Of a stretch of 43,741 nucleotides of DNA, positions 1,970-42,151 are shown one piece after another. A model generated the notes under the pieces. It ran no database searches. It saw only the letters and a program-made list of their open reading frames with translations, and was not told the origin of the DNA. The position numbers and the translations under genes were made by a program. Every line of letters begins with the position of its first letter. Position 1 is the first letter of the stretch. The DNA lies in the sequence record NC_019724.1, one strand, 5' to 3'. The stretch is from Escherichia phage HK578.

Positions 1970-3490
1970 ATGACCGTTAACGTTGACAACCAGCACCCGC
2001 TCTATGCGCGCATAGCGCCAGAGTGGAAAATGATCCGTGACTGCGTAGCAGGGGAGCGCGCCGTGAAGGCGTGCGGGCCATTGTACCTGCCACACCCCGC
2101 AAGCGGGGACACCACCGACCCGAAATCACGGGCACGCTATAAGGCATATAAGCAACGTGCTGTCTTCCTGAACGCCACCGCCCGCACACTGAATGCCCTG
2201 TTAGGCGTGGCCTTCGCCAAACCGGTGAGTCTGGACCTTTCCGGGGCAATGGCTGACCTGATTGATGACGTAGACGGCAGCGGGATGCCACTGGCGCAAC
2301 TACTGCGCGGCGCTATGTCGGAAGTGCTGCAATCGGGCCGCGCAGGCTTTATGGTGGACTATGACCGCCAGGCGCATTTTGACGAACTGGGTAACGTAGT
2401 GCCGCAGACCGCCGCTGAAATGGCGGCACACCGCCCGCTTATCCGCCTGTATACGGCTGAACAGATCATCAACTGGCGGCAGACACACGGCGTCGACACG
2501 CTAATCGTGCTGAAGGAGACGGACGAAATCAGCACCGAAGACCCGGACGACTTCGCAAACCACGAAGTTACGATCTGGACCGAGCTTCGCATGATTAACG
2601 GTGCGGCACACGCCCGCCGCTGGTTTTACAACGCGGACACGTCCGAGGTGCAAATGGACTTGCCGCGGGGATTCACCCGCACCGACCTTGTACCTCTGGT
2701 GGACGCTGCCGGTAACGCGCTTACGCAACTGCCTTTCTGTTGGTGTGGCGCGGTGGATAACAACGCGACACCGGACGCCGCACCGCTGGCGGATATTGCG
2801 TCCATCAACATTAAGCACTACAACGCCGAAGCAGACGTCGCCGAGATTGCGCACATCGTGGGGCAACCTACCCTCATTGCGACTGGTCTGACCCAATCAT
2901 GGGCGGACAAGAACCTGAAAGGCGGCATCGCGCTCGGGGCAACTAAGGGCGTTATCCTGGGCCAGAACATGGACGCTAAACTGCTTCAGGCGGAGGAGCG
3001 CAACTTGTCTGTTGCACTGTGTGAGCGCCGAGAATTGCAAATGGCTAAACTGGGGGCGGCCCTGGTCGAGAAGGGGACCGCACCCAAGACGGCAACCGAA
3101 GCGGCCTACGATGCGCAGACAGATAACAGTATCCTGTCACTGATTGCCGGTAACGTTGAGAAGGCTTTCAACCGTGCGCTGCAAATCGTTAAGCTGTTCA
3201 CCGGCGACACCGCCGACCAGCGCGTAACGCTGAACAAGTTCTACACTGAAATCACGGTTGATGCGCAGCTTATGACCGCGATGATGGCAGGTGTGCAGAC
3301 CGGTACTGTCCGACTTGCAGACTTTATCAAGTGGATGATGGCCCAGGGCGTTATTGATGACTCGCAAACCGTCGAGCAGGTGGAAGACGAACTGCGAAAT
3401 CAGAATCCATTGCCTCAAATGTCCCCGGATGCGGTAGAATCGACCGAAGAAGCCCCGGACGAGGTAGCGGACAATGGCGAAGACAATTAA
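1970..3490 (+). CDS. portal protein
   Basis: 506-aa ORF immediately after TerL with SD AAGGAAA; size, position and acidic C-terminus typical of portal. Confidence 0.75.
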   Translation: MTVNVDNQHPLYARIAPEWKMIRDCVAGERAVKACGPLYLPHPASGDTTDPKSRARYKAYKQRAVFLNATARTLNALLGVAFAKPVSLDLSGAMADLIDDVDGSGMPLAQLLRGAMSEVLQSGRAGFMVDYDRQAHFDELGNVVPQTAAEMAAHRPLIRLYTAEQIINWRQTHGVDTLIVLKETDEISTEDPDDFANHEVTIWTELRMINGAAHARRWFYNADTSEVQMDLPRGFTRTDLVPLVDAAGNALTQLPFCWCGAVDNNATPDAAPLADIASINIKHYNAEADVAEIAHIVGQPTLIATGLTQSWADKNLKGGIALGATKGVILGQNMDAKLLQAEERNLSVALCERRELQMAKLGAALVEKGTAPKTATEAAYDAQTDNSILSLIAGNVEKAFNRALQIVKLFTGDTADQRVTLNKFYTEITVDAQLMTAMMAGVQTGTVRLADFIKWMMAQGVIDDSQTVEQVEDELRNQNPLPQMSPDAVESTEEAPDEVADNGEDN

Positions 3491-5485: not shown

Positions 5486-5520
5486 CTTGTTTTCCTTCAT
5501 ATCTCTGTTGGTGTGCAACC

Positions 5521-5550
5521 AATATACTGCAACCAATATCCGCAATGCAA
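5521..5550 (-). promoter_or_regulatory. sigma70-like promoter for 5078..5485
   Basis: minus strand TTGCAT-18 nt-TATATT; spacer and -10 overlap two TGCAACCAAT copies (5514-5523, 5528-5537). Confidence 0.4.
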
Positions 5551-10795: not shown

Positions 10796-11109
10796 TTGAG
10801 GCGGCGCGACGCTTTTATGGCCCGCCGCCACCCTCCGAAGATTTAGCCGCGAGTTTATGGGGCGCGACACCCGAAGACGTGTGTCCGCCCGTTGCGCTGT
10901 GGCCCGACAACGCGAAGGTAGTCGCAGTCTTCACAGATTGCTCCACGCAATGGCGTACCGGATTTGGCGGGGCATACGGCATAGACTACGGCGTACTGGA
11001 ATGGTTATTTAAGATGCACGGCATTGAAAACGCGCAACGTGCGTTTAAAGATATCAAGCTAATGGAACGCGTTGCGCTTGATGAAATGGCGCGGCAGAAC
11101 CCCGCATAA
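10433..11109 (+). CDS. tail assembly chaperone frameshift fusion (G-T-like)
   Basis: predicted ~225-aa product made by -1 slip at 10786-10792 joining 10433..10792 to the -1 frame ending at 11109; matches the conserved G/G-T arrangement upstream of tape measure genes. Confidence 0.55.
10786..10792 (+). other. -1 programmed ribosomal frameshift site (A AAA AAC)
   Basis: heptamer X XXY YYZ at the last two codons of the G-like ORF; -1 frame is open from here to 11109 (checked codon by codon 10792-10881). Confidence 0.6.
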
Positions 11110-11115
11110 CGAAGC

Positions 11116-11381
11116 AGGACAGGCGGGACGTCCCGTTTTATCCCGTTCTGTCCCGCACCTCTAAAAACTGCATATTTACCCACTCCTATTGCATAAATTA
11201 AAAGCGGGACAGGGGTGCTGTCCCGATCTGTCCCACCCCCAAAATGTGAATAGTTATGCAGTTTTCGCGCATAAAACAAACGGGACAAAAAGCGGGACAG
11301 AATTGGGCGGGACAAAGCGGGACGTCCCGCCGCCCCCATCAGTGCTGCCGCGTGTTTCAGCCGATCGGGACAGGCGGGACA
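11116..11381. repeat. GGGACA / TGTCCC iteron array (copy A region)
   Basis: about 13 copies of GGGACA or its complement in ~270 bp, including palindromes GGGACGTCCC (11125-11134, 11318-11327) and pairs spaced 9-12 nt. Confidence 0.7.
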
Positions 11382-11435
11382 AAGCCCAGTCTTTCAGACT
11401 AGACGGGGGTCATTGGCCCCCCTCGTCTGAGACTG
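11246..11435 (+). repeat. ~190-bp dispersed repeat, copy A
   Basis: aligns by eye at roughly 85 percent identity to 38348..38539: shared blocks tgaatagttatgcagtttt, cgggacaaaaagcgggacaga, gggcgggacaaagcgggac, gggacaggcgggacaaa and the terminal hairpin. Confidence 0.75.
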
Positions 11436-11503
11436 AATAAGGTTTGTTTTAAATTCGCTGATACAATGTCAACCGGCAACTGCATAAAAAGGGGGACTGC
11501 ATA

Positions 11504-14146
11504 ATGGCAGATCAGGCAGCGGGCATCACGCTCAAGGCGGACGTCGCGCAAATTAAAACGGCTAATACTGTGCTGGACACATTTGCGCAGAAATCCGAGA
11601 ACACAGAACAGAAAGTAAAAAAATTAAACGACACACTCGGCAAGTCTAAAAAGGTTACTGGCGACGCCGCGGGCGGAATGGAAAAGTTAGCGACTGAATC
11701 GCAGCGTGCCGCCGATGGTATGTCAAAACAGGAGCGACTCGCCAGCCGATTAGGCATGTCGACCAAAAACCTGGGATTCGCATCGCGGAACGCCGCATTC
11801 CAGTTACAGGATATCGCGGTAACGCTCGAGATGGGTATGCCGGTGCATCGAGTAATGCTTCAGCAGCTACCACAGCTTACGGGGGCGTTTGGTGGGTTGG
11901 GGAATACGCTGCGTTATGTCGTCGGCACCCTCGGCCCGATAGGGATCGGAATCGCTGCATTAACGGCAACGCTAGGCGTGGGCGTGGCGATTACGTCCCG
12001 CGCGGAAAACCAAGTGGCGGCGCTGAATAAGACGCTGGCGCTGTCCGGTAATATTTCGGGCCTCACCGCTAACCAGATCCTGGTGCTATCCGAGAACGCC
12101 GAGCGGATGGGCGGATCATTCCGCAAGACGCGTGACACAATTCAGTCACTGGCGGCGGCTGGGGTGAAAGCCGGAGCGGATTTCGGCGGGTTAGCAAAGG
12201 TGGTTAATGACTTTGCAAAGACGTCGGGCCAGCCTATTGAGGACGTGGTCGCGTCGGTGGCGAAGCTGTCCACTGACCCAGTAGGTGGTTTGCGCGCACT
12301 GGCGGATAAGTATCACGTCGTAACCGAAGCGCAGATCCAGCAGGTGCAGTCATTGGTGGATGTGGGCCGCGAGACAGATGCGGTTGCGCTGGCGAACAAA
12401 ACCGCCGCGGCGTCGTTTACCACTATGACAAACGATATCAAGGCGAACATGGGTACGCTTGAGCGGTCGATGAACGTCGTCACATCGGCAGCTAAATCCA
12501 TGTGGGACGCCATCCTGGATGTGGGCCGCGCGCAGTCCTCCAATGAGTCAGAGATGAAAGCGCGTGAATCCTTGCAGCGCATGACCACGGCTTACTATGC
12601 CGAGATGAAAGCGGTAAACGCTGCCGGTGGGGTGATGACTGAAGCGCAGAAAGCACGTATTAACATGCTTTACAGCGAAATGGTCGCCCAGGAGAAAGTA
12701 GTGGCGTCGCTCACCCTGCGCAACCGCGCCGAGCGGGACAACGCCCGCGCCTCGGACGAATCGGCGAAGGCGAACGAGGAGGCCAACCGCGCTGCCCGCG
12801 ACCGCGCCGCATTTGAGAAGGAATTCGCCACCAACGCGAAGAGGCGCTCCGACGAGATCGCTCGCCTCAATTTGCTGAATAAGCGCGGCGTTATTAGCGA
12901 GAAAGAGCTTGCCGAGGCGGTGAAGCAGGTAAACGAGCGCTACAAAGACCCGGCCCCGAAGAAGGCCGCGGCTGTTCGCGTGGATGCCGGTATGAAAATG
13001 CTGGAAGTCGCACGGAGCGAACTGGCCCAGCTTCGAGAATCCGGCAAGCAGATCGAAGCCAACGCATCGACGCAGACCCGCACACAACGCGCTCAAGCGG
13101 CCCTAAACAAGCTGATCGCCGACAATGAGCAGTTAATTGCTGCGAGCAAAGAAAGAGCGCTAACGGCAGCCGAAAAGCAGCAGATGGTCGAATTCGGACG
13201 CGTGAAGGAAGTGCGCGAGCAGATCGTCGAAGAAGCCAAATTGCTGGATGCGAAAGAGCAGCAGGTTAAGGCGCACGCGCAGATCGATGCCTTCGTTAAG
13301 AACCAGAACGCCGAACTAAAAGCCACCGCCGCGGGGTATGCGCTTTCCACTCGCGAAGCGGCAAACCTGCGCGAAGAATTGCAGCTAATTGATCGCCTGA
13401 AGCGGGTTGGCGCTAACGATACCGATATAGACAAGGCGGTGTCTAAGCTGCGCGAAGTGCAGGAAGCACAGACCGGAGCTAACGCCTCGCTATGGGATGG
13501 CTTCAGCCACGGGCTTAAGGATAGCGTGGATGAAATGGGTAACGGATATACGCAGATGGCGTCTCTCACGAAATTCACATTCAGCGCTATGCAGGACACG
13601 ATGAACGAGTTTTTCGAGACTGGCAAGCTGAACGCAAAGGATATGGTTAAGTCCATCCTGAGCGAATTAATCAAGCTGGCTACCTCGCAGGCGTTCAAGT
13701 CCATCGTTAGCGCTTTCGGTGGTGACGGCGGCAAAAACGGATTGTTCGGCGCTATCTTCTCTGGCCTTACTAAGAATGCGGACGGTGGAGCGTACGCAGG
13801 AGGCAATCTCGCGGCCTATTCGGGGAAAGTGGTAAGCCAGCCTACCTTTTTCAGTTATGGCGTCCAGGCGTTCGCTAAGGGCGCTGGGTTGATGGGTGAG
13901 GCTGGGCCTGAGGCCATCATGCCGCTGAAGCGCGGGCCGGACGGGAAACTGGGCGTTGCTGCGTCTGGCGCAGGTGGTGGTATGGTCGTGACGACTAACG
14001 TTTACACGGGGACCGGTAAAACGGATACCAGTGTCGGCGGGCCGGACCCCCGTACCGCGCAGGCGTTCGGCAAGCAAATCACCGAGGCGGTGAAGGCCGA
14101 GATCGTGAAGGCGACGAAACCGGGTGGTGTACTTTATAAACGATGA
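11504..14146 (+). CDS. tail tape measure protein
   Basis: 880 aa, helical Ala/Gln/Glu/Lys-rich, Gly-rich C-terminal region; SD AGGGGGA; follows G/G-T. Confidence 0.85.
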   Translation: MADQAAGITLKADVAQIKTANTVLDTFAQKSENTEQKVKKLNDTLGKSKKVTGDAAGGMEKLATESQRAADGMSKQERLASRLGMSTKNLGFASRNAAFQLQDIAVTLEMGMPVHRVMLQQLPQLTGAFGGLGNTLRYVVGTLGPIGIGIAALTATLGVGVAITSRAENQVAALNKTLALSGNISGLTANQILVLSENAERMGGSFRKTRDTIQSLAAAGVKAGADFGGLAKVVNDFAKTSGQPIEDVVASVAKLSTDPVGGLRALADKYHVVTEAQIQQVQSLVDVGRETDAVALANKTAAASFTTMTNDIKANMGTLERSMNVVTSAAKSMWDAILDVGRAQSSNESEMKARESLQRMTTAYYAEMKAVNAAGGVMTEAQKARINMLYSEMVAQEKVVASLTLRNRAERDNARASDESAKANEEANRAARDRAAFEKEFATNAKRRSDEIARLNLLNKRGVISEKELAEAVKQVNERYKDPAPKKAAAVRVDAGMKMLEVARSELAQLRESGKQIEANASTQTRTQRAQAALNKLIADNEQLIAASKERALTAAEKQQMVEFGRVKEVREQIVEEAKLLDAKEQQVKAHAQIDAFVKNQNAELKATAAGYALSTREAANLREELQLIDRLKRVGANDTDIDKAVSKLREVQEAQTGANASLWDGFSHGLKDSVDEMGNGYTQMASLTKFTFSAMQDTMNEFFETGKLNAKDMVKSILSELIKLATSQAFKSIVSAFGGDGGKNGLFGAIFSGLTKNADGGAYAGGNLAAYSGKVVSQPTFFSYGVQAFAKGAGLMGEAGPEAIMPLKRGPDGKLGVAASGAGGGMVVTTNVYTGTGKTDTSVGGPDPRTAQAFGKQITEAVKAEIVKATKPGGVLYKR

Positions 14147-24705: not shown

Positions 24706-24735
24706 ACTATAGTGCAACCAACCTATTGGTTGCAA
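24706..24735 (-). promoter_or_regulatory. sigma70-like promoter overlapping palindromic operator-like site
   Basis: minus strand TTGCAA-18 nt-TATAGT; embedded perfect inverted repeat TGCAACCAA-ccta-TTGGTTGCA (24713-24734). Confidence 0.4.
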
Positions 24736-25926: not shown

Positions 25927-25955
25927 AATATAATGCAGCCAATCTAGTTATGCAA
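25927..25955 (-). promoter_or_regulatory. sigma70-like internal promoter
   Basis: minus strand TTGCAT-17 nt-TATATT; overlaps direct repeats TGCAGCCAAT (25934-25943) and TGCAACCAAT (25951-25960). Confidence 0.4.
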
Positions 25956-25960
25956 CCAAT

Positions 25961-28877: not shown

Positions 28878-29156
28878 TTAAGCGACCAATTCAGCAACCA
28901 ATAAATCACAGTCGGCTATGTTGTCGATAACGCGAACGTCCGCACCGCGGCGGGCCATTCGCTCATGTTCTCGTACCTGGTGCGGCTTCGGTTTGCCGCC
29001 GGGGCGCTTCACTTCGACGAAAACTATCTTGCCGTTGATGATGATTATAAGGTCTGGCGCTCCCGCGCGCCCCTCCCATGCCACTTTACGGCAGAATCCG
29101 CCGACGGCTTTAACCAACTTCATAAGGTGACTTTGGATCTTGCCTTCTGGTGTCAT
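28878..29156 (-). CDS. VRR-NUC domain nuclease
   Basis: PD-(D/E)xK signature PDLIII...GKIVFVEVKRPGGKPKPHQ; start at ATG 29156 with SD GAGGAA. Confidence 0.75.
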   Translation of the reverse strand: MTPEGKIQSHLMKLVKAVGGFCRKVAWEGRAGAPDLIIIINGKIVFVEVKRPGGKPKPHQVREHERMARRGADVRVIDNIADCDLLVAELVA

Positions 29157-32729: not shown

Positions 32730-32793
32730 TTTCCAATTCCTCATTTTACATGTATCGGGGTTATTGTAAGCCACCCCGTTCGGCTTGGTTGCT

Positions 32794-32822
32794 AATCTAC
32801 TTGGTTGCGCCTAAGCGGTCAA
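32794..32822 (-). promoter_or_regulatory. sigma70-like internal promoter
   Basis: minus strand TTGACC-17 nt-TAGATT; direct repeats TTGGTTGC at 32785-32792 and 32801-32808. Confidence 0.35.
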
Positions 32823-35574: not shown

Positions 35575-36003
35575 ATGAGCACAAACGAGACCTTAAATCG
35601 CTGGAACCATAAGAAATGGCCCCACCAAATTAACCGCGCCACCGAGGATGATAATACCATCGCTTTCGGCGATATGGACGCGGACCCTATGACCCCTGAG
35701 CAAATAGCCGCCGATGTGCTGTCAATGGACCGACATACGGCTTCGGAAATAATCGTTGCTCTGATAAACGAAATAAGCGGCAGCTATAACGAACTGAATG
35801 ACCTGTACGCGGAGCTTGACCTGTTGAAAGGTGGCGCTATCGCAGCGGTGCGTAAATCCGAAGAGGCAGCACGCGAGATGGCTATCGCCCGCGAGAAATA
35901 TATGCCTGTCGTTAAGCGCCTGCGTGCGGAAGGCTTGTCATGGAATCAGATCGCCGAGATGACTGGAATCAACCGTTCTACAATCCGCCAGTGGGCTAAA
36001 TGA
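35575..36003 (+). CDS. putative HTH DNA-binding regulator
   Basis: 142 aa; C-terminal helix-turn-helix LSWNQIAEMTGINRSTIRQWAK; first gene downstream of the rightward promoter. Confidence 0.55.
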   Translation: MSTNETLNRWNHKKWPHQINRATEDDNTIAFGDMDADPMTPEQIAADVLSMDRHTASEIIVALINEISGSYNELNDLYAELDLLKGGAIAAVRKSEEAAREMAIAREKYMPVVKRLRAEGLSWNQIAEMTGINRSTIRQWAK

Positions 36004-36013
36004 GACGAAAACA

Positions 36014-38275
36014 ATGAAAAATTACTTAATCGAGTTCGGCACCGTCGGCGGTAAGTACGGCAAGCGTGTTAAAAACCATTCTATGACGGAAGCCGAGTTT
36101 ATGGAATACGTCGCGGATACAGTGGAGCTGTCCGGCGTTACCATTACCGGCGACGAGACTAAGAAAGAATACGATGCGGTGAAGGGTAAGGCGGAAGGCA
36201 TTGTCGCCACCACTAAAGGCCGCGGTCGTCGCGCCACGGAAGTGGGTGTGCGTTCGGTTTTGTTCTACGATCTGGACCGCACGGACAACCGAACCCTGGG
36301 TCGTGTTAAGCGGGCATTTCGTAAATCCGGCCTGTCCCACGTCTACTACTCCACTACTGGCGACCGCCATCCGCTGAAGGGCGGCACACGTTGCGCACGT
36401 TTCCTGGTACTAACCAATAAACCGGTCGACGTTACCGATTTGGGGCGTGCTCAGTTCGCACTGTTACACGACCTCGGACTGGAAGACGTACCGTTTGACG
36501 ATTGCACAAAAAACGTCAACAACCTGCAGTTCCTCCCGCATTCCGGATCTACCGTGTCTTGCCACCACGGCAAACGTGCCAATGTGCGGCGTCTGCTCCG
36601 CCTGGCTGACAAGCTGGGGGTGGAGAAAGAGGAAGTACGCCGCGAGCTTACCCAGGGCGACGACGCAGTGGCGGACGGTATTCTGGACTGGTGCTTCCAG
36701 GCAGGATTCGAGGAGTTATCCTCCGGTCGCGGTTATGAAGTGCCTTGCCCGAACGAACATCTGCACAGCGGCGAAGGATCGACGGCCATCATGGTCAAGG
36801 ATGGCGAGATCCGTTTCAAGTGTATGCACACCGGCAACGAGTGTTGCTCGGAGCTAAATAGACACCAGCACCTGGCGCTACGTCTTATCGGGATACCGGA
36901 CCACCTGAACGTCGAGCCGCACAACATGTCCCGTAAGCAAATCGCCGCCATCCTCCCAGGGCTGGACGACGAGGAAGTCGAATCCTTATATGAACATATT
37001 GTTGATGCGGTTGGCGACGGCGAAGAATACGGCGTATGCACCGATGCGGATCTGGATAACGAGCCGGTTGCGCTGTTCAGTAAGCACGACCCGATCATCG
37101 AGGGGTTGATTAACTTTAAATCGACCTGGTATATGGCGGGCGAGTCGAATATCGGTAAGTCGTTCTATGTGCTGGGGCAGATGGGCGCGGTTGCCGCCGG
37201 TATCCCGTTTGGCGGTGCGAAGGTCGTCCAGTCGCATTGCTTCTATTTCGATGCGGAAGGCGGCGAAGCCTCCAACCAGCGTAAGGAGGCATTGCAGATC
37301 AAATACGAGCACGACCTGGACAAGCTGCACATTATCGACCTGCAATCACGCGGCTGGGATATCACCAGCAAGTCTGGCTTGCGCGAAGTTATCAGCTTTA
37401 TCAATCGCACAGCTAACGGGGAGCCGGTTGGCCTGGTGGCATTCGACTCACTCAACCAGACTGTTGCGCTGCGGTCCGCCGATGCTAAACCATTTGACGA
37501 GAACAACGCCAGCGATATGGGTGAAGTGGTCAAAGCGTTAAAAGCCATCGCGGAAAACACAGGCGGCAGTGCGGGCGTCATCCACCACCCGGCGAAAGGT
37601 GCAAACGGCAGCAGAACCCCCCGCGGGTCCGGTGCGCTTCATGGCGCTGTCGATTCTGCGTTCTTCCTGGAACAGCCGGACGACAACCAGCCGGGGCAAC
37701 TTAACCTTTATCACGAAAAATCACGTAACGGCATCAAGCAAGCGCCTCGTGGCTTCGTCCTGCTCAAGTGCAAGGTGAAGGTAGATCTCCGCAAGTCAGA
37801 AGCGTTCGCGTCGCACCAGTCCACCAGCACCGGGCCAGACTTCGGCGACGTTGTTGCCGGTTGGGACGTCAAACCAATTGCGTCCACGCCACGCGACGAG
37901 ACTCTGTACCTCGTGCCGGTCGCCCTGGCGCCGTTCGCCATCGAACAGGCGAAGGCCGCGGGCAAAGCTGCAGTTAAGGAAGAAAACGCCGCCGGTCCGC
38001 GCAACGAAAAAGAGAAAGTGCTTTATGCTGCCCTGGAAAAACTGATGGAAGATAACCCGGACCATACTGGATTTAGTAAATCGGCAATTGTCCGCCAGGC
38101 TGGACTCGCGAAGGGTGGCACTTCGACGAAGGCAATCGACGATATGGTCGAGCGCGGCGTGATTGGTTTCTACACAGATCCGCACACCGGGGCCATCTAT
38201 GGGTCGTCGAATTTAGTCATCAAATCGGATAGCCCCATAACGCTTTCGGCGACCGATGATGACCTGAAAGATTAA
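36014..38275 (+). CDS. primase-helicase (Prim-Pol domain + zinc-binding region + RecA-like ATPase)
   Basis: 753 aa; N-terminal VLFYDLD and TTGDRH (archaeo-eukaryotic primase-like), Cys/His cluster CPNEHLHSG...CMHTGNEC, Walker A GESNIGKS and Walker B LVAFDSL; C-terminal ~100 aa possible DNA-binding domain. Confidence 0.8.
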   Translation: MKNYLIEFGTVGGKYGKRVKNHSMTEAEFMEYVADTVELSGVTITGDETKKEYDAVKGKAEGIVATTKGRGRRATEVGVRSVLFYDLDRTDNRTLGRVKRAFRKSGLSHVYYSTTGDRHPLKGGTRCARFLVLTNKPVDVTDLGRAQFALLHDLGLEDVPFDDCTKNVNNLQFLPHSGSTVSCHHGKRANVRRLLRLADKLGVEKEEVRRELTQGDDAVADGILDWCFQAGFEELSSGRGYEVPCPNEHLHSGEGSTAIMVKDGEIRFKCMHTGNECCSELNRHQHLALRLIGIPDHLNVEPHNMSRKQIAAILPGLDDEEVESLYEHIVDAVGDGEEYGVCTDADLDNEPVALFSKHDPIIEGLINFKSTWYMAGESNIGKSFYVLGQMGAVAAGIPFGGAKVVQSHCFYFDAEGGEASNQRKEALQIKYEHDLDKLHIIDLQSRGWDITSKSGLREVISFINRTANGEPVGLVAFDSLNQTVALRSADAKPFDENNASDMGEVVKALKAIAENTGGSAGVIHHPAKGANGSRTPRGSGALHGAVDSAFFLEQPDDNQPGQLNLYHEKSRNGIKQAPRGFVLLKCKVKVDLRKSEAFASHQSTSTGPDFGDVVAGWDVKPIASTPRDETLYLVPVALAPFAIEQAKAAGKAAVKEENAAGPRNEKEKVLYAALEKLMEDNPDHTGFSKSAIVRQAGLAKGGTSTKAIDDMVERGVIGFYTDPHTGAIYGSSNLVIKSDSPITLSATDDDLKD

Positions 38276-38347
38276 ATTTTGCGCGCATTGGTTGCCATTT
38301 TGAGTGTTTTTAGCTGGTCGCATTGGTTGCCGTGTAGTGTGAATATA

Positions 38348-38539
38348 GTGAATAGTTATGCAGTTTTATTGCATAAAGCAAGCGGGACAAAAAGCGGGAC
38401 AGACCAGGGGCGGGACAAAGCGGGACAGCACCCCCTGTCCCGCCCGGCTGGCGCGGCTCTCAGAGGAGCGGGACAGGCGGGACAAACCCCAGTCTTTCAG
38501 ACTAGACGGGGGGTCAATGGCCCCCCTCGTCTGAGACTG
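38348..38539 (+). repeat. ~190-bp dispersed repeat, copy B (GGGACA iterons + hairpin)
   Basis: seven GGGACA/TGTCCC copies at 38384-38484 and hairpin 38490-38539; homologous to 11246..11435. Confidence 0.75.
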
Positions 38540-38698
38540 CATAAAATCCCGGATTGCATAATACACGGCAGCATGTTGCGGATTGCGGTCGTCGCTGAAC
38601 TAGGCAACCAATGCGAGTTGCAGAATGGTGGGTGAAAAATGCAGTTTGCAGTCACAGCAGATAGCGATCAACTTTTTCATGCGCGTGATTAATATTGG

Positions 38699-38727
38699 TT
38701 GCATCCGCCCCAGCACCCTGCTATATT
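38699..38727 (+). promoter_or_regulatory. sigma70-like promoter for 38755 gene
   Basis: TTGCAT-17 nt-TATATT; ATTGGTTGCA copies at 38694-38703 and 38725-38734; downstream 22-mer identical to the one upstream of 5078..5485. Confidence 0.45.
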
Positions 38728-38754
38728 GGTTGCACACCAACAGGAGGGCGGAAC

Positions 38755-38934
38755 ATGAAAACCGAAATGGTTGATAAGCACGAAATCAAGATCGGAGATA
38801 CGGTAGTCCACAACGGGGAGCTTCGCACTGTGTGCAAGCGAGCGTTTAGCATCGATGAATTTATGGGCCTGCTACTTTGGGGCGACAGCTACCGTTTAGG
38901 GTATAAACTGGTTGAGAGGGTTACGGAACTATGA
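38755..38934 (+). CDS. hypothetical small protein
   Basis: 59 aa from ATG 38755 (MKTEMVDKHEIK...) with SD AGGAGGG. Confidence 0.45.
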   Translation: MKTEMVDKHEIKIGDTVVHNGELRTVCKRAFSIDEFMGLLLWGDSYRLGYKLVERVTEL

Positions 38935-40166: not shown

Positions 40167-40303
40167 GTGCGGCTATCCGTGATATGCTTCAGCACAACCG
40201 CTTTGAGATAGGAGGGCGAGTATTTCGCAATTACTTCGTGGCGCGTGCATGGGCGCGCCATATTGGCAAACCGGAATGGGCAATACGATGTTACACGATG
40301 TGA
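40163..40303 (+). CDS. small hypothetical protein (not in ORF track)
   Basis: 46 codons (MSAAIRDMLQHNRFEIGGRVFRNYF...) starting in ATGA overlap with upstream stop; weak. Confidence 0.3.
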   Translation: MSAAIRDMLQHNRFEIGGRVFRNYFVARAWARHIGKPEWAIRCYTM

Positions 40304-40575
40304 TTTATTGGTTTGGTTTGATCTGCGGGCTGTGCCTGCTTACCGCGGTGCTGTTGGGCGTTCTGATGTTCGTAGTATGGCCCGCTGTGGAAGCCGCCAG
40401 CATTACCCGCATGACGTTCGAGATCTACAAGCGCCGTGGAATCACGGAGCACCCGACAAGGTTGCGCATGTGGTGGCTGTGGTATCGGGATATGATAGGC
40501 GGTAGAACATTCGAAGCCGTCCGATCATCCGGGTGGGAATGGAAAGGCGTCGGCAAGTGGTCCATTTTCGATTAA
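40288..40575 (+). CDS. small membrane protein
   Basis: 95 aa from ATG 40288 (MLHDVIYWFGLICGLCLLTAVLLGVLMFVVW...); one clear TM helix; start uncertain (alternative 40249). Confidence 0.4.
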   Translation: MLHDVIYWFGLICGLCLLTAVLLGVLMFVVWPAVEAASITRMTFEIYKRRGITEHPTRLRMWWLWYRDMIGGRTFEAVRSSGWEWKGVGKWSIFD

Positions 40576-40594
40576 ATATGCAAGCGTGATATAG

Positions 40595-40627
40595 TCCCAG
40601 TGAGCTAAAACTTACTGGGACTTTTTT
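40595..40627 (+). terminator. terminator-like hairpin abutting the holin start codon
   Basis: TCCCAGT-12-nt loop-ACTGGGA followed by CTTTTTT, then ATG 40628 with no SD. Confidence 0.45.
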
Positions 40628-40918
40628 ATGGATAAGCTAAACGAGTGGCTATTCGCCCTGGCATGTCTGGCGGGTGGCTTCGTAGGCGCACGCCTTCATG
40701 GTGAGGCTACGAAAGGGCCGCTAAACTTCGTTTTGTATGTCGTAGTTGGCTTCCTGTGTGCCATATTTGGCGCACCGGCTATTGCCGAGTGGGCTGGTTT
40801 GTCGGGTGAGCGCACTGTCGCCGGTTTGGGCTTCGTAACCGCGATTTTCTGGATGCCAATCGCCGACCGGATCAGGGAGACTATTGCGTCGTTCCGACTT
40901 CCGGGGGGTGTAAAATGA
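40628..40918 (+). CDS. putative holin
   Basis: 96 aa with ~3 predicted TM segments and charged C-terminus, two genes upstream of the lysozyme gene. Confidence 0.55.
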   Translation: MDKLNEWLFALACLAGGFVGARLHGEATKGPLNFVLYVVVGFLCAIFGAPAIAEWAGLSGERTVAGLGFVTAIFWMPIADRIRETIASFRLPGGVK

Positions 40919-42088: not shown

Positions 42089-42151
42089 TTGCTTGACTTG
42101 CAACCAACATAGACGCCATACTGCGACCAATCAACGAGAGGAGTAATCAAG

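Follow-up and report, generated by a model that had tools for sequence, protein, structure and literature searches.

Paired iteron and hairpin elements as a candidate bipartite replication origin in Escherichia phage HK578

The complete 43,741-bp genome of Escherichia phage HK578 (NC_019724.1), referred to here over its full length as the window, contains two copies of an element consisting of an AT-rich block, short direct repeats (iterons) with the core CGGGAC, and a hairpin. HK578 is a Dhillonvirus (HK578-like siphophage), and Dhillonviruses are among the most frequently isolated E. coli phages, with several members in the BASEL collection. One copy, region B, lies immediately downstream of the gene for a 753-aa primase-helicase (the replicase), and the other, region A, immediately precedes the tape measure gene. 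On the basis of sequence comparison, region B is probably the replicase-proximal primary origin of replication, with region A as a co-evolving second origin or an enhancer or cis partner. Region B is named as the primary origin because it abuts the replicase gene and because its equivalent is the sole copy in the Guernseyvirinae.

The pair as a sequence feature is already known, since the record of Sodalis phage SO-1 (NC_013600 / GQ502199) annotates a repeat_region "region A" at 11214-11597 and a "region B" at 40178-40657. No paper analysing the pair or defining the replication origin of Dhillonvirus was found in a literature search. The co-varying iteron classes, the fixed geometry, the candidate binder and the evolutionary history appear to be undescribed so far.

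The two elements and their iteron classes

The original prediction, made from the sequence alone, described a diverged direct repeat of about 190 bp, roughly 85% identical by eye. BLAST aligned 11246-11440 with 38348-38544 colinearly at 84.3% identity over 198 columns (E 1.4e-53), in good agreement with this estimate. The claimed common order of blocks was recovered by pairwise MAFFT alignment and was the same in A and B: GTGAATAGTTATGCAGTTTT, four direct GCGGGACA-type boxes, a diverged middle (A-B identity about 0.56), GGGACAGGCGGGACAAA and the hairpin. The GCGGGACA motif occurs 15 times in the window compared with 2.1 times expected, and none of 100 shuffled sequences reached 15. Twelve of the 15 sites fall inside regions A or B. 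The CGGGAC core is present in 12 copies in A and in 7 copies in B. The core features of both elements are as follows.

Region B
38276-38754: 479-bp gap between the stop codon of the replicase gene and the ATG of the next gene at 38755, corresponding to the non-coding region of about 480 bp that had been predicted
38338-38380, + strand: AT-rich block, 72% A+T versus 45.5% in the genome
38348-38359, + strand: GTGAATAGTTAT, an exact 12-mer found in the window only at the start of A and of B
38356-38376: palindrome TTATGCA-N7-TGCATAA within the AT-rich block
38382-38427, + strand: four direct GCGGGACA iterons starting at 38382, 38394, 38410 and 38420
38428-38467: G+C-rich variable middle with one inverted iteron (38436-38443, minus strand)
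38468-38484, + strand: hairpin-proximal iteron pair, GCGGGACA at 38468 and 38477, 9 bp apart
38490-38539, + strand: imperfect hairpin of about 20 bp, CAGTCT..CAGAC..GACGGGGGG loop CCCCCC..GTCTGAGACTG

Region A
11110-11503: 394-bp gap between the end of the tail-chaperone frameshift open reading frame (ORF) at 11109 and the tape measure gene at 11504
11112-11240: extra upstream iteron block present in A only, CGGGAC in both orientations, palindrome GGGACGTCCC at 11125-11134
11241-11279, + strand: AT-rich block, 69% A+T versus 45.5% in the genome, with GTGAATAGTTAT at 11246-11257 and the palindrome TTATGCA-N7-TGCATAA
11280-11329, + strand: four direct iterons, CGGGAC at 11281, 11293, 11308 and 11318, spaced as in B
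11365-11381, + strand: hairpin-proximal iteron pair (11365-11372 and 11374-11381)
11387-11435, + strand: hairpin, stem unchanged and loop variable in 13 genomes

The two regions are separated by 27 kb one way and by 16.6 kb the other way round the circle. The last direct iteron of A forms the palindrome GGGACGTCCC (11319-11328) with an inverted box. A G+C-rich middle with an inverted iteron is present in each element, and its sequence is not kept between A and B. The extra block upstream of A differs in length among genomes. By eye, no consensus site for integration host factor (IHF) was seen in the elements. The sequence TGTGAATAG was considered as a DnaA box with one mismatch and was dropped because it is not conserved among the A copies.

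Relatives with a replicase 66-69% identical to that of the window kept the layout of the elements, while the boxes differed. Four other iteron classes were found besides CGGGAC, namely GTGTGGCA, GTGTGCCA, GGTGCCA and GGGAT. The sites read for each class were the following.

CGGGAC: the window; L059 (B) and L092 (A); both sites read
GTGTGGCA: L060 (B) and L091 (A), at opposite ends of a single 27.6-kb contig; both sites read
GTGTGGCA: L093 (B) and L100 (A), on separate contigs from the same sample with a total of 45.4 kb; both sites read
GTGTGCCA: L094 (B) and L101 (A), one sample with a total of 44.5 kb; both sites read
GGTGCCA: L095 and L096; B only
GGGAT(C/A): L097 (B) and L098 (A), located on the same contig, with 46% identity in the replicase and 51% in the tape measure; both sites read

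Wherever both sites were read, which was the case for four classes, A and B carried the same class. The GGGAT box is present in 6 copies in L097 (B equivalent) and in 7 copies in L098 (A equivalent). Relative to the hairpin, the direct boxes are located at about -107, -95, -79, -69, -21 and -12 in all classes and at both sites. The shared class and the fixed positions suggest that one sequence-specific, phage-encoded protein reads both sites and forms a complex of fixed geometry. The claim of two cis elements with common iterons was borne out by the classes read at both sites. The Logan assemblies L060/L091, L093/L100 and L094/L101 break at or near the A/B repeats, so that each genome is split into a contig of about 27-34 kb and another of about 11 kb. 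The 27.6-kb contig has the same 27 nt at its start and its end, inside the repeat. The A/B repeat is apparently long and similar enough to fragment short-read assemblies.

An array 3' of the replicase gene was also present in relatives from the Guernseyvirinae, at a protein identity of 43-47%. In Salmonella phage GRNsp27 (replicase 43% identical) five GGGGGAGA boxes follow the replicase stop codon and are all the copies in the genome; GTGAATAGTTAT is found twice as an exact match in the same stretch, together with a G+C hairpin. In Serratia phage Otaku, four TGTGCGGAA boxes and a G+C hairpin are located directly 3' of the homologous replicase gene. No equivalent of A was found in GRNsp27 or Otaku, and the stretch preceding the tape measure gene of GRNsp27 is an open frame (part of the chaperone frameshift). 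Since these outgroups have the helicase-proximal array only, this copy is regarded as ancestral and sufficient. The second copy would then have been gained on the branch from which Dhillonvirus and its nearer relatives descend.

The hairpin of B folded as DNA with -14.9 kcal/mol (z -3.9; minus strand z -3.0) and that of A with -13.4 kcal/mol (z -3.8), both far outside the range of shuffled controls, the opposite strand folding about equally well. In both elements the stem is kept while the loop varies. Compensatory changes were present in L093 (GGGGTG/CACCC, with a T:A pair in place of G:C) and in L094 (GGGAG/CTCCC, in which the 5' and 3' outer arms have changed sides), and both hairpins still fold with z values of -3.1 to -3.5. 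These changes were judged from the folds of single sequences and from the named variants; the MAFFT alignment is out of register at the indel-rich loop. In the GTGCCA lineage the iterons match at A and B, yet the hairpin sequences differ. No T-run follows either hairpin on the transcribed strand, and neither hairpin scored as a terminator there in the terminator scan. Rfam covariance models gave no match over the whole window at the gathering threshold. The hairpin may act as a duplex cruciform, as single-stranded DNA or as RNA.

Related genomes were searched for paired copies, and the pair was present in nearly all Dhillonvirus records. In the phage collection 157 records matched each region, nearly all of them at two or more places. 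A 22-nt hairpin probe gave two hits per IMG/VR Dhillonvirus contig, and complete contigs carry two; the exceptions were one contig with region A at its end and another from a divergent lineage. Only two copies of the element were present, always at the same two loci. In one IMG/VR contig (UViG 2595698459_000001) regions A and B were both 100% identical to those of the window. In alignments of 13 genomes the boxes and stems were invariant or nearly so, and the spacers and the loop were variable. The boxes of the four-iteron block were unchanged in the 13 aligned B copies, with differing spacers.

Within the genus the identity was 0.87 among A copies and 0.85 among B copies, while A and B were 0.79 identical in the same genome and 0.77 between genomes. 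The excess of within-genome over between-genome A-B identity had a permutation p of 0.0003 for the iteron block and of 0.016 for the hairpin block. Because A-A and B-B identities are higher than A-B identities and the within-genome excess is slight, the copies appear to be old and to have evolved mostly independently, with occasional gene conversion.

The window starts with the gene for the small terminase and is 91-93% identical to phages TheodorHerzl (Bas14), PC2 and B2 across 25 kb. A long + strand unit starts at a divergent promoter region near 35.4-35.55 kb and comprises, in this order, the genes for a small helix-turn-helix (HTH) protein and the 753-aa replicase, small genes, and the lysis, terminase, head and tail genes. 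The minus-strand block at 23.5-35.4 kb encodes DNA polymerase I, an SSB-like protein, a DUF2800 nuclease and an SNF2 helicase. Several further features flank the two hairpins.

38284-38348, + strand: 35-bp direct repeat with two ATTGGTTGCC boxes (38287-38295 and 38322-38330), outside the core shared by A and B
38536-38561, + strand: pair of (A/T)TGCATAA boxes with a spacing of 17 bp, immediately 3' of the B hairpin
38604-38612: inverted ATTGGTTGC box in the downstream part of region B
38699-38727: promoter-like stretch TTGCAT-17 nt-TATATT before the gene at 38755, with ATTGGTTGC boxes at 38694-38702 and 38725-38733
11459-11467, + strand: extended -10-like TGATACAAT, 37 nt upstream of the tape measure ATG
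11479-11503: two ACTGCATAA boxes after the A hairpin, at 11479 and 11496, on either side of the tape measure ribosome-binding site and overlapping the ATG

The motif ATTGGTTGCC occurs in B at 38287, 38322, 38604 (inverted), 38694 and 38725. The repeats of this type that had been proposed to flank B were found at the first two of these positions, but they are absent from A and do not belong to the shared element. Pairs of (A/T)CTGCATAA-type boxes with a spacing of 17 bp follow both the A and the B hairpin and could be translational or transcriptional operators. The extended -10-like CTGATACAAT after A is invariant in the 13 genomes, and divergent lineages keep it as TGATACAAT or TGCTACAAT. It lacks a -35 and was hence not listed by the consensus scan. 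The promoter-like stretch of B is near-invariant across the 13 genomes; its -35 matches in only 3 of 6 positions and it was therefore below the threshold of the same scan.

Three genomes deviated around the elements. In phage Teewinot (L007, OK499993) a 53-bp unit comprising the last helicase codons and one ATTGGTTGCC box is tandemly amplified 4-5 times just before region B (2895-3107). In vB_EcoS-EE09 (L006, OR756193) a 56-bp deletion in B, flanked by two GGGACAGCACCCC direct repeats, removes the variable middle and the hairpin-proximal iteron pair. The same record has the helicase gene split into two coding sequences (480 nt and 1866 nt), and EE09 represents either a viable natural variant or assembly errors. 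In L092 (Logan ERR3503310_6725), a member of the CGGGAC lineage with a replicase 66% identical to that of the window, two extra minus-strand genes (126 and 123 aa) are present between the tail chaperone and A at 1853-2601. They have their own TTGGTTGC boxes, and region A is still located directly upstream of the tape measure gene.

The replicase and other candidate binding proteins

The identification of the neighbouring gene product as a primase-helicase was confirmed by an AEP fold in the N-terminal model and by a helicase domain. The gene and the domains of its product are as follows.

36014-38275, + strand: replicase gene (753 aa), immediately upstream of B
Residues about 1-230: AEP primase
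Residues 245-278: Cys/His cluster
Residues 356-530: AAA_25 helicase
Residues about 665-740 (nt 38006-38233): predicted winged helix

Pfam detected AAA_25 (RepA/DnaB-like, E 2.8e-19) as the sole domain, and PHROG 3228 (replicative helicase-primase) matched the protein. An AlphaFold model of residues 1-360, with a mean predicted local distance difference test score (pLDDT) of 81, matched the S-2L PrimPol AEP (6zp9) in Foldseek with E 2.5e-4 and a probability of 1.00. Further matches were Prim-PolC and LigD-pol, and Toprim was not matched. Residues D86, D88 and H119 are invariant. A PDB sequence search with the replicase returned only the RepA chain 1g8y as a weak hit (E 0.54), and Pfam searches with the isolated N- and C-terminal parts gave only a weak hint of Ribosomal_S25 (winged helix, E 0.06).

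A possible C-terminal DNA-binding domain had been predicted, and structure prediction yielded a winged helix at about residues 665-740. The model of residues 640-753 has the order H-H-H-beta-wing-beta with a core pLDDT of 80-89. Its top Foldseek hits were all winged-helix proteins, namely MarR, IclR, Fur, Rio2 and histone H1, with probabilities of at most 0.99.

The domains were compared with the iterons in nine lineages of known iteron class. For the winged helix (665-740) the identity of same-class pairs was at least 0.59 with a mean of 0.74, and that of different-class pairs was at most 0.63 with a mean of 0.56. Only the winged helix nearly separated same-class from different-class pairs, while the values for the AEP, Zn and helicase parts and for the HTH protein overlapped widely. 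At residues 703-706, where the predicted recognition helix starts, the sequence is T[SN]T[KT] with GGGACA, SSTK with GTGGCA, STSK with GTGCCA and ST[TS]T with GGTGCCA iterons. The motif FSK[SA]AI in helix 2 failed as a mark of the GGGACA class, since P0009 and P0011 have it together with GGTGCCA iterons.

The small HTH protein (142 aa) is encoded on the + strand at 35575-36003, just upstream of the replicase gene, and has a C-terminal HTH_23 / sigma-70 region 4-like helix-turn-helix (Pfam HTH_23, E 6.3e-7). It was rejected as the iteron binder because its HTH part is 91-98% identical where lineages differ in their iterons and 45% identical where they share the same iteron. None of the other early proteins had the expected pattern of co-variation, and the genes that follow B differ from lineage to lineage, without conservation. 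As the winged helix tracks the iteron class best, the HTH protein is excluded and no other early protein fits, the winged helix of the replicase is, with moderate confidence, the best candidate for the iteron binder.

The HTH_23 protein is probably the regulator that acts on another motif. Boxes of the type ATTGGTTGC(A), mostly paired, are found ahead of many operons on both strands and are absent from A. They are often seen as tatATTGGTTGCACACCAAC at a promoter-like -10/+1. Their positions in the window are as follows.

5515/5529 (5515-5537)
21606
24714/24725 (24714-24733)
25935/25952 (25935-25960)
28882/28894 (28882-28902)
32784/32800 (32784-32808)
35375
five sites in B within 38287-38733
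42100/42123 (42100-42131)

The box is kept in the lineages that keep the HTH_23 protein, and the distant L097 lineage has a different regulator, an HTH_3 protein, and with it a different box, GCTGCCAAC. From this distribution, ATTGGTTGC is probably a phage-wide operator or promoter motif. The HTH protein of the window has a unique N-terminal extension, and its HTH part is about 45% identical to the 96-109-aa versions of Dhillonvirus. The adjacent replicase is 88-97% identical, and the regulator gene therefore appears to have been swapped in a mosaic fashion.

Residues 1 to about 100 of the replicase are 41-44% identical to those of WFI and Ioannina, and the rest of the protein is 94-100% identical, which suggests recombination inside the replicase gene. 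No plasmid replicon with this replicase was found in the plasmid collection. The E. coli plasmid record CP088689.1 (44,086 bp) gave the single good replicase hit (37% identity). This record has the size of a phage and possibly represents a phage genome or a phage-plasmid submitted under the label of a plasmid.

Proposed function and alternative explanations

It is proposed that the winged helix at the C-terminus of the replicase binds the iterons, that this binding initiates replication and that A contributes to it. The bound protomers would assemble beside the AT-rich block and the hairpin. The duplex would open, and the hairpin, either extruded or on the displaced strand, would serve as a helicase-loading or priming signal, whereupon replication would start. 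Region A would be bound by the same protein and would be a second origin or a cis partner comparable to P4 crr or to the R6K gamma iterons. An AT-rich stretch next to the iterons, as in iteron origins, is present in A and in B.

Several observations weigh against this function. The A/B pairings L093/L100 and L094/L101 rest on contigs from the same sample and not on a single contig. The iteron spacing of 12, 16, 10, 48 and 9 bp is unlike the 11/22-bp phasing of classical plasmid iterons. GC and AT skew over the window track only the coding strand and the direction of transcription and gave no origin signal. The Foldseek E values of the winged helix are weak (at least 0.035). The winged helices of the window and P0013, which have the same iteron, are only 0.59 identical, equal to or below several pairs with different iterons. 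The deletion in EE09 implies that the deleted parts of B are dispensable or that A compensates for them. In addition, both elements are located at operon junctions and have the orientation of transcription, with conserved promoter-like sequences after them.

The two sites may depend on each other more strictly. In an obligate two-site origin, A would be required in cis or would couple replication to the late genes through replicase-mediated pairing with B, and the iteron classes would be orthogonal specificities. This extension of the origin proposal is put forward tentatively. With a similar degree of doubt, A and B may be fully independent origins that do not cooperate, the second copy speeding up or diversifying initiation. 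Each copy indeed has the full set of AT-rich block, six positioned iterons and hairpin in the same geometry, and A and B mostly evolve separately within the genus. The Guernseyvirinae manage with one copy, and EE09 tolerates a partly deleted B. However, the hairpins share one orientation, so that both sites would prime the same strand, and the computed data give no separation from an arrangement of origin and enhancer. Independent origins are a sub-variant of the proposal that B is the primary origin and A its partner, and do not contradict it.

A role in transcription is possible and may coexist with the origin function, but it is rather unlikely as the main explanation. The arrays would control transcription at two operon junctions, one between the helicase and the lysis and late genes, the other between the tail chaperone and the genes for the tape measure and the distal tail. 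A DNA-binding protein, possibly the replicase winged helix, would switch on or block transcription there, and the hairpin would act in RNA by processing, stabilising or modulating termination. Both elements are intergenic, lie on the transcribed strand and are oriented as the flanking genes, and B is situated exactly at the boundary between early replication and late genes. The conserved extended -10 TGATACAAT after A and the conserved, box-flanked promoter-like stretch after B also fit such a role. In A, inverted iteron pairs with T-runs after them score as terminator-like on the minus strand, and the WFI record annotates a putative terminator within its region A.

On the transcribed strand, however, the hairpins lack a T-run, and Rfam found no match. 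The HTH_23 protein, which is the sole dedicated regulator in the vicinity, shows no co-variation with the iterons. In the Guernseyvirinae the array stays at the 3' end of the replicase gene despite different downstream genes, and an AT-rich block, iterons and a hairpin beside the gene for a predicted winged-helix replicase are standard origin anatomy. Control of transcription is considered less likely than the origin function because the array is attached to the replicase gene across subfamilies and because no regulator co-varies with it.

It is very improbable, and contradicted by the data, that the elements are packaging (pac) or genome-end signals. The GenBank records of WFI (L004), PTXU06 and Zar3M are linearised inside B at about window position 38652, but the source paper of these records gives no end determination, and the start of other records is either the terminase gene or arbitrary. 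The break thus probably reflects a common convention and not a physical end. It lies outside the shared core of A and B, the small terminase gene is 5.5 kb away, and two copies 27 kb apart would make no sense for headful packaging.

Least probable of all, and also contradicted by the data, is the reading of the shared core as what is left of a small coding gene, as a duplicate of one or as a functionless selfish miniature repeat. Many GenBank records call spurious small ORFs within the repeats (e.g., TheodorHerzl bas14_0018 and bas14_0052), and the same ATGCAG begins both window ORFs, the one at 11256-11402 and the one at 38358-38534. In most B copies, however, the ORF reads ATG CAA TAA and stops after two codons, and 1-nt indels between A and B make the frames diverge. 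Conservation follows the boxes and the hairpin stem and not codons, other lineages replace the box sequence wholesale and keep the box positions, and the element is present in two copies only, always at the same two loci.

Relation to known systems and implications

The arrangement was originally likened to the ori/crr pair of satellite phage P4. Reportedly, the P4 ori/crr sites and the alpha protein were described by Flensburg and Calendar in 1987 and by Ziegelin et al. in 1993 and 1995, and the structure of the origin-binding domain of alpha is 1KA8. The logic is similar in that HK578 has one multidomain replicase with primase, helicase and a predicted C-terminal winged helix, and two separated cis elements with the same short iterons kilobases apart. 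In contrast, alpha combines a Toprim/DnaG-type primase with an SF3 helicase, while the HK578 replicase combines AEP with a RecA-like AAA_25 domain. The iteron sequences are unlike, and the spacing is about 4.5 kb in P4 versus 27 or 16.6 kb in HK578. Each HK578 copy has a conserved hairpin, and the host of the elements is a virulent 44-kb siphophage and not a satellite. The C-terminal winged helix is a match at the level of the fold, and a likeness to the P4 domain itself was not seen. Since the primase and helicase modules come from different families, HK578 does not belong to the P4 alpha type. The resemblance to P4 thus holds for the logic of the system and not for homology of the replicase, and the earlier interpretation as a whole is partly supported.

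By analogy, the closest mechanistic relatives are pRN1 with ORF904 and its downstream stem-loop origin, the Rep-ori modules of the staphylococcal pathogenicity islands (SaPI), and the IncQ plasmid RSF1010. The Rep-ori modules of SaPI and of the phage-inducible chromosomal islands (PICI) were reportedly described by Ubeda et al. in 2007 and 2012. SaPI/PICI modules and lambdoid O/ori have a short-iteron origin around an AT-rich stretch, 3' of (SaPI) or inside (lambda) the initiator gene. As is proposed for the HK578 group, iteron sequence and the DNA-binding domain of the initiator switch together between relatives, resulting in specificity classes. They differ in having unrelated initiators, a single origin copy and no conserved positioned hairpin. 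In plasmid R6K, with its gamma, alpha and beta origins and the pi protein, an iteron array acts over kilobases on sites with the same iteron by protein-mediated looping. The R6K initiator pi, however, is of the Rep_3 family, and the distant sites contain one iteron or half-iteron, whereas both sites are complete in HK578. These features of SaPI, lambdoid phages and R6K are established knowledge.

The origin of pRN1 is a stem-loop 3' of the gene for ORF904, an AEP-helicase-winged-helix replicase, and its authors proposed the same logic for some bacteriophages (PMC4234260). The HK578 replicase likewise has an N-terminal AEP prim-pol, a helicase and a predicted winged helix, and in both systems a stem-loop, conserved more in structure than in sequence, lies directly 3' of the replicase gene. 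The helicase of pRN1 is of the SF3 type, in place of which AAA_25 was found in HK578. Furthermore, pRN1 has no iteron array and one copy of the stem-loop, which is about 100 nt in size compared with about 50 nt in HK578.

In RSF1010 the hexameric RepA helicase belongs to the AAA_25 family, the AEP-like RepB' primase starts on hairpin-forming ssi sites, and the iterons lie beside G+C-rich and AT-rich segments. The sites ssiA and ssiB are adjacent 40-nt inverted repeats on opposite strands (PMC8567376). The HK578 hairpins, on the other hand, are in direct orientation on the + strand, one per element and 27 kb apart, so that the IncQ pairing of opposite-strand ssi hairpins is not present. RSF1010 also uses three separate proteins, with RepC as a separate iteron binder, and 20-bp iterons; in HK578 no separate binder of the RepC kind was found, as the HTH_23 protein does not co-vary.

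The results provide a precise origin candidate for Dhillonvirus together with a named domain as the putative binder, and extend the logic known from P4, pRN1 and the SaPIs to a replicase composed of an AEP primase and a RepA-like helicase. If the proposal is true, the natural switching of specificity would be useful for orthogonal phage or plasmid replicons. The hairpins may also be origin structures that are sensed by OLD- or Lamassu-type defences. HK578 escapers of OLD defence had mutations in this helicase-primase and in its promoter, and origin-associated iteron hairpins were proposed as the trigger of OLD (preprint 10.64898/2026.07.10.737580). The hairpins of A and B are obvious candidates for this proposed trigger and make the proposal testable. 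For the family itself, an obligate two-site origin would mean that at least five natural iteron classes, shared by A and B and each paired with its own variant of the winged helix, limit cross-replication between co-infecting relatives.

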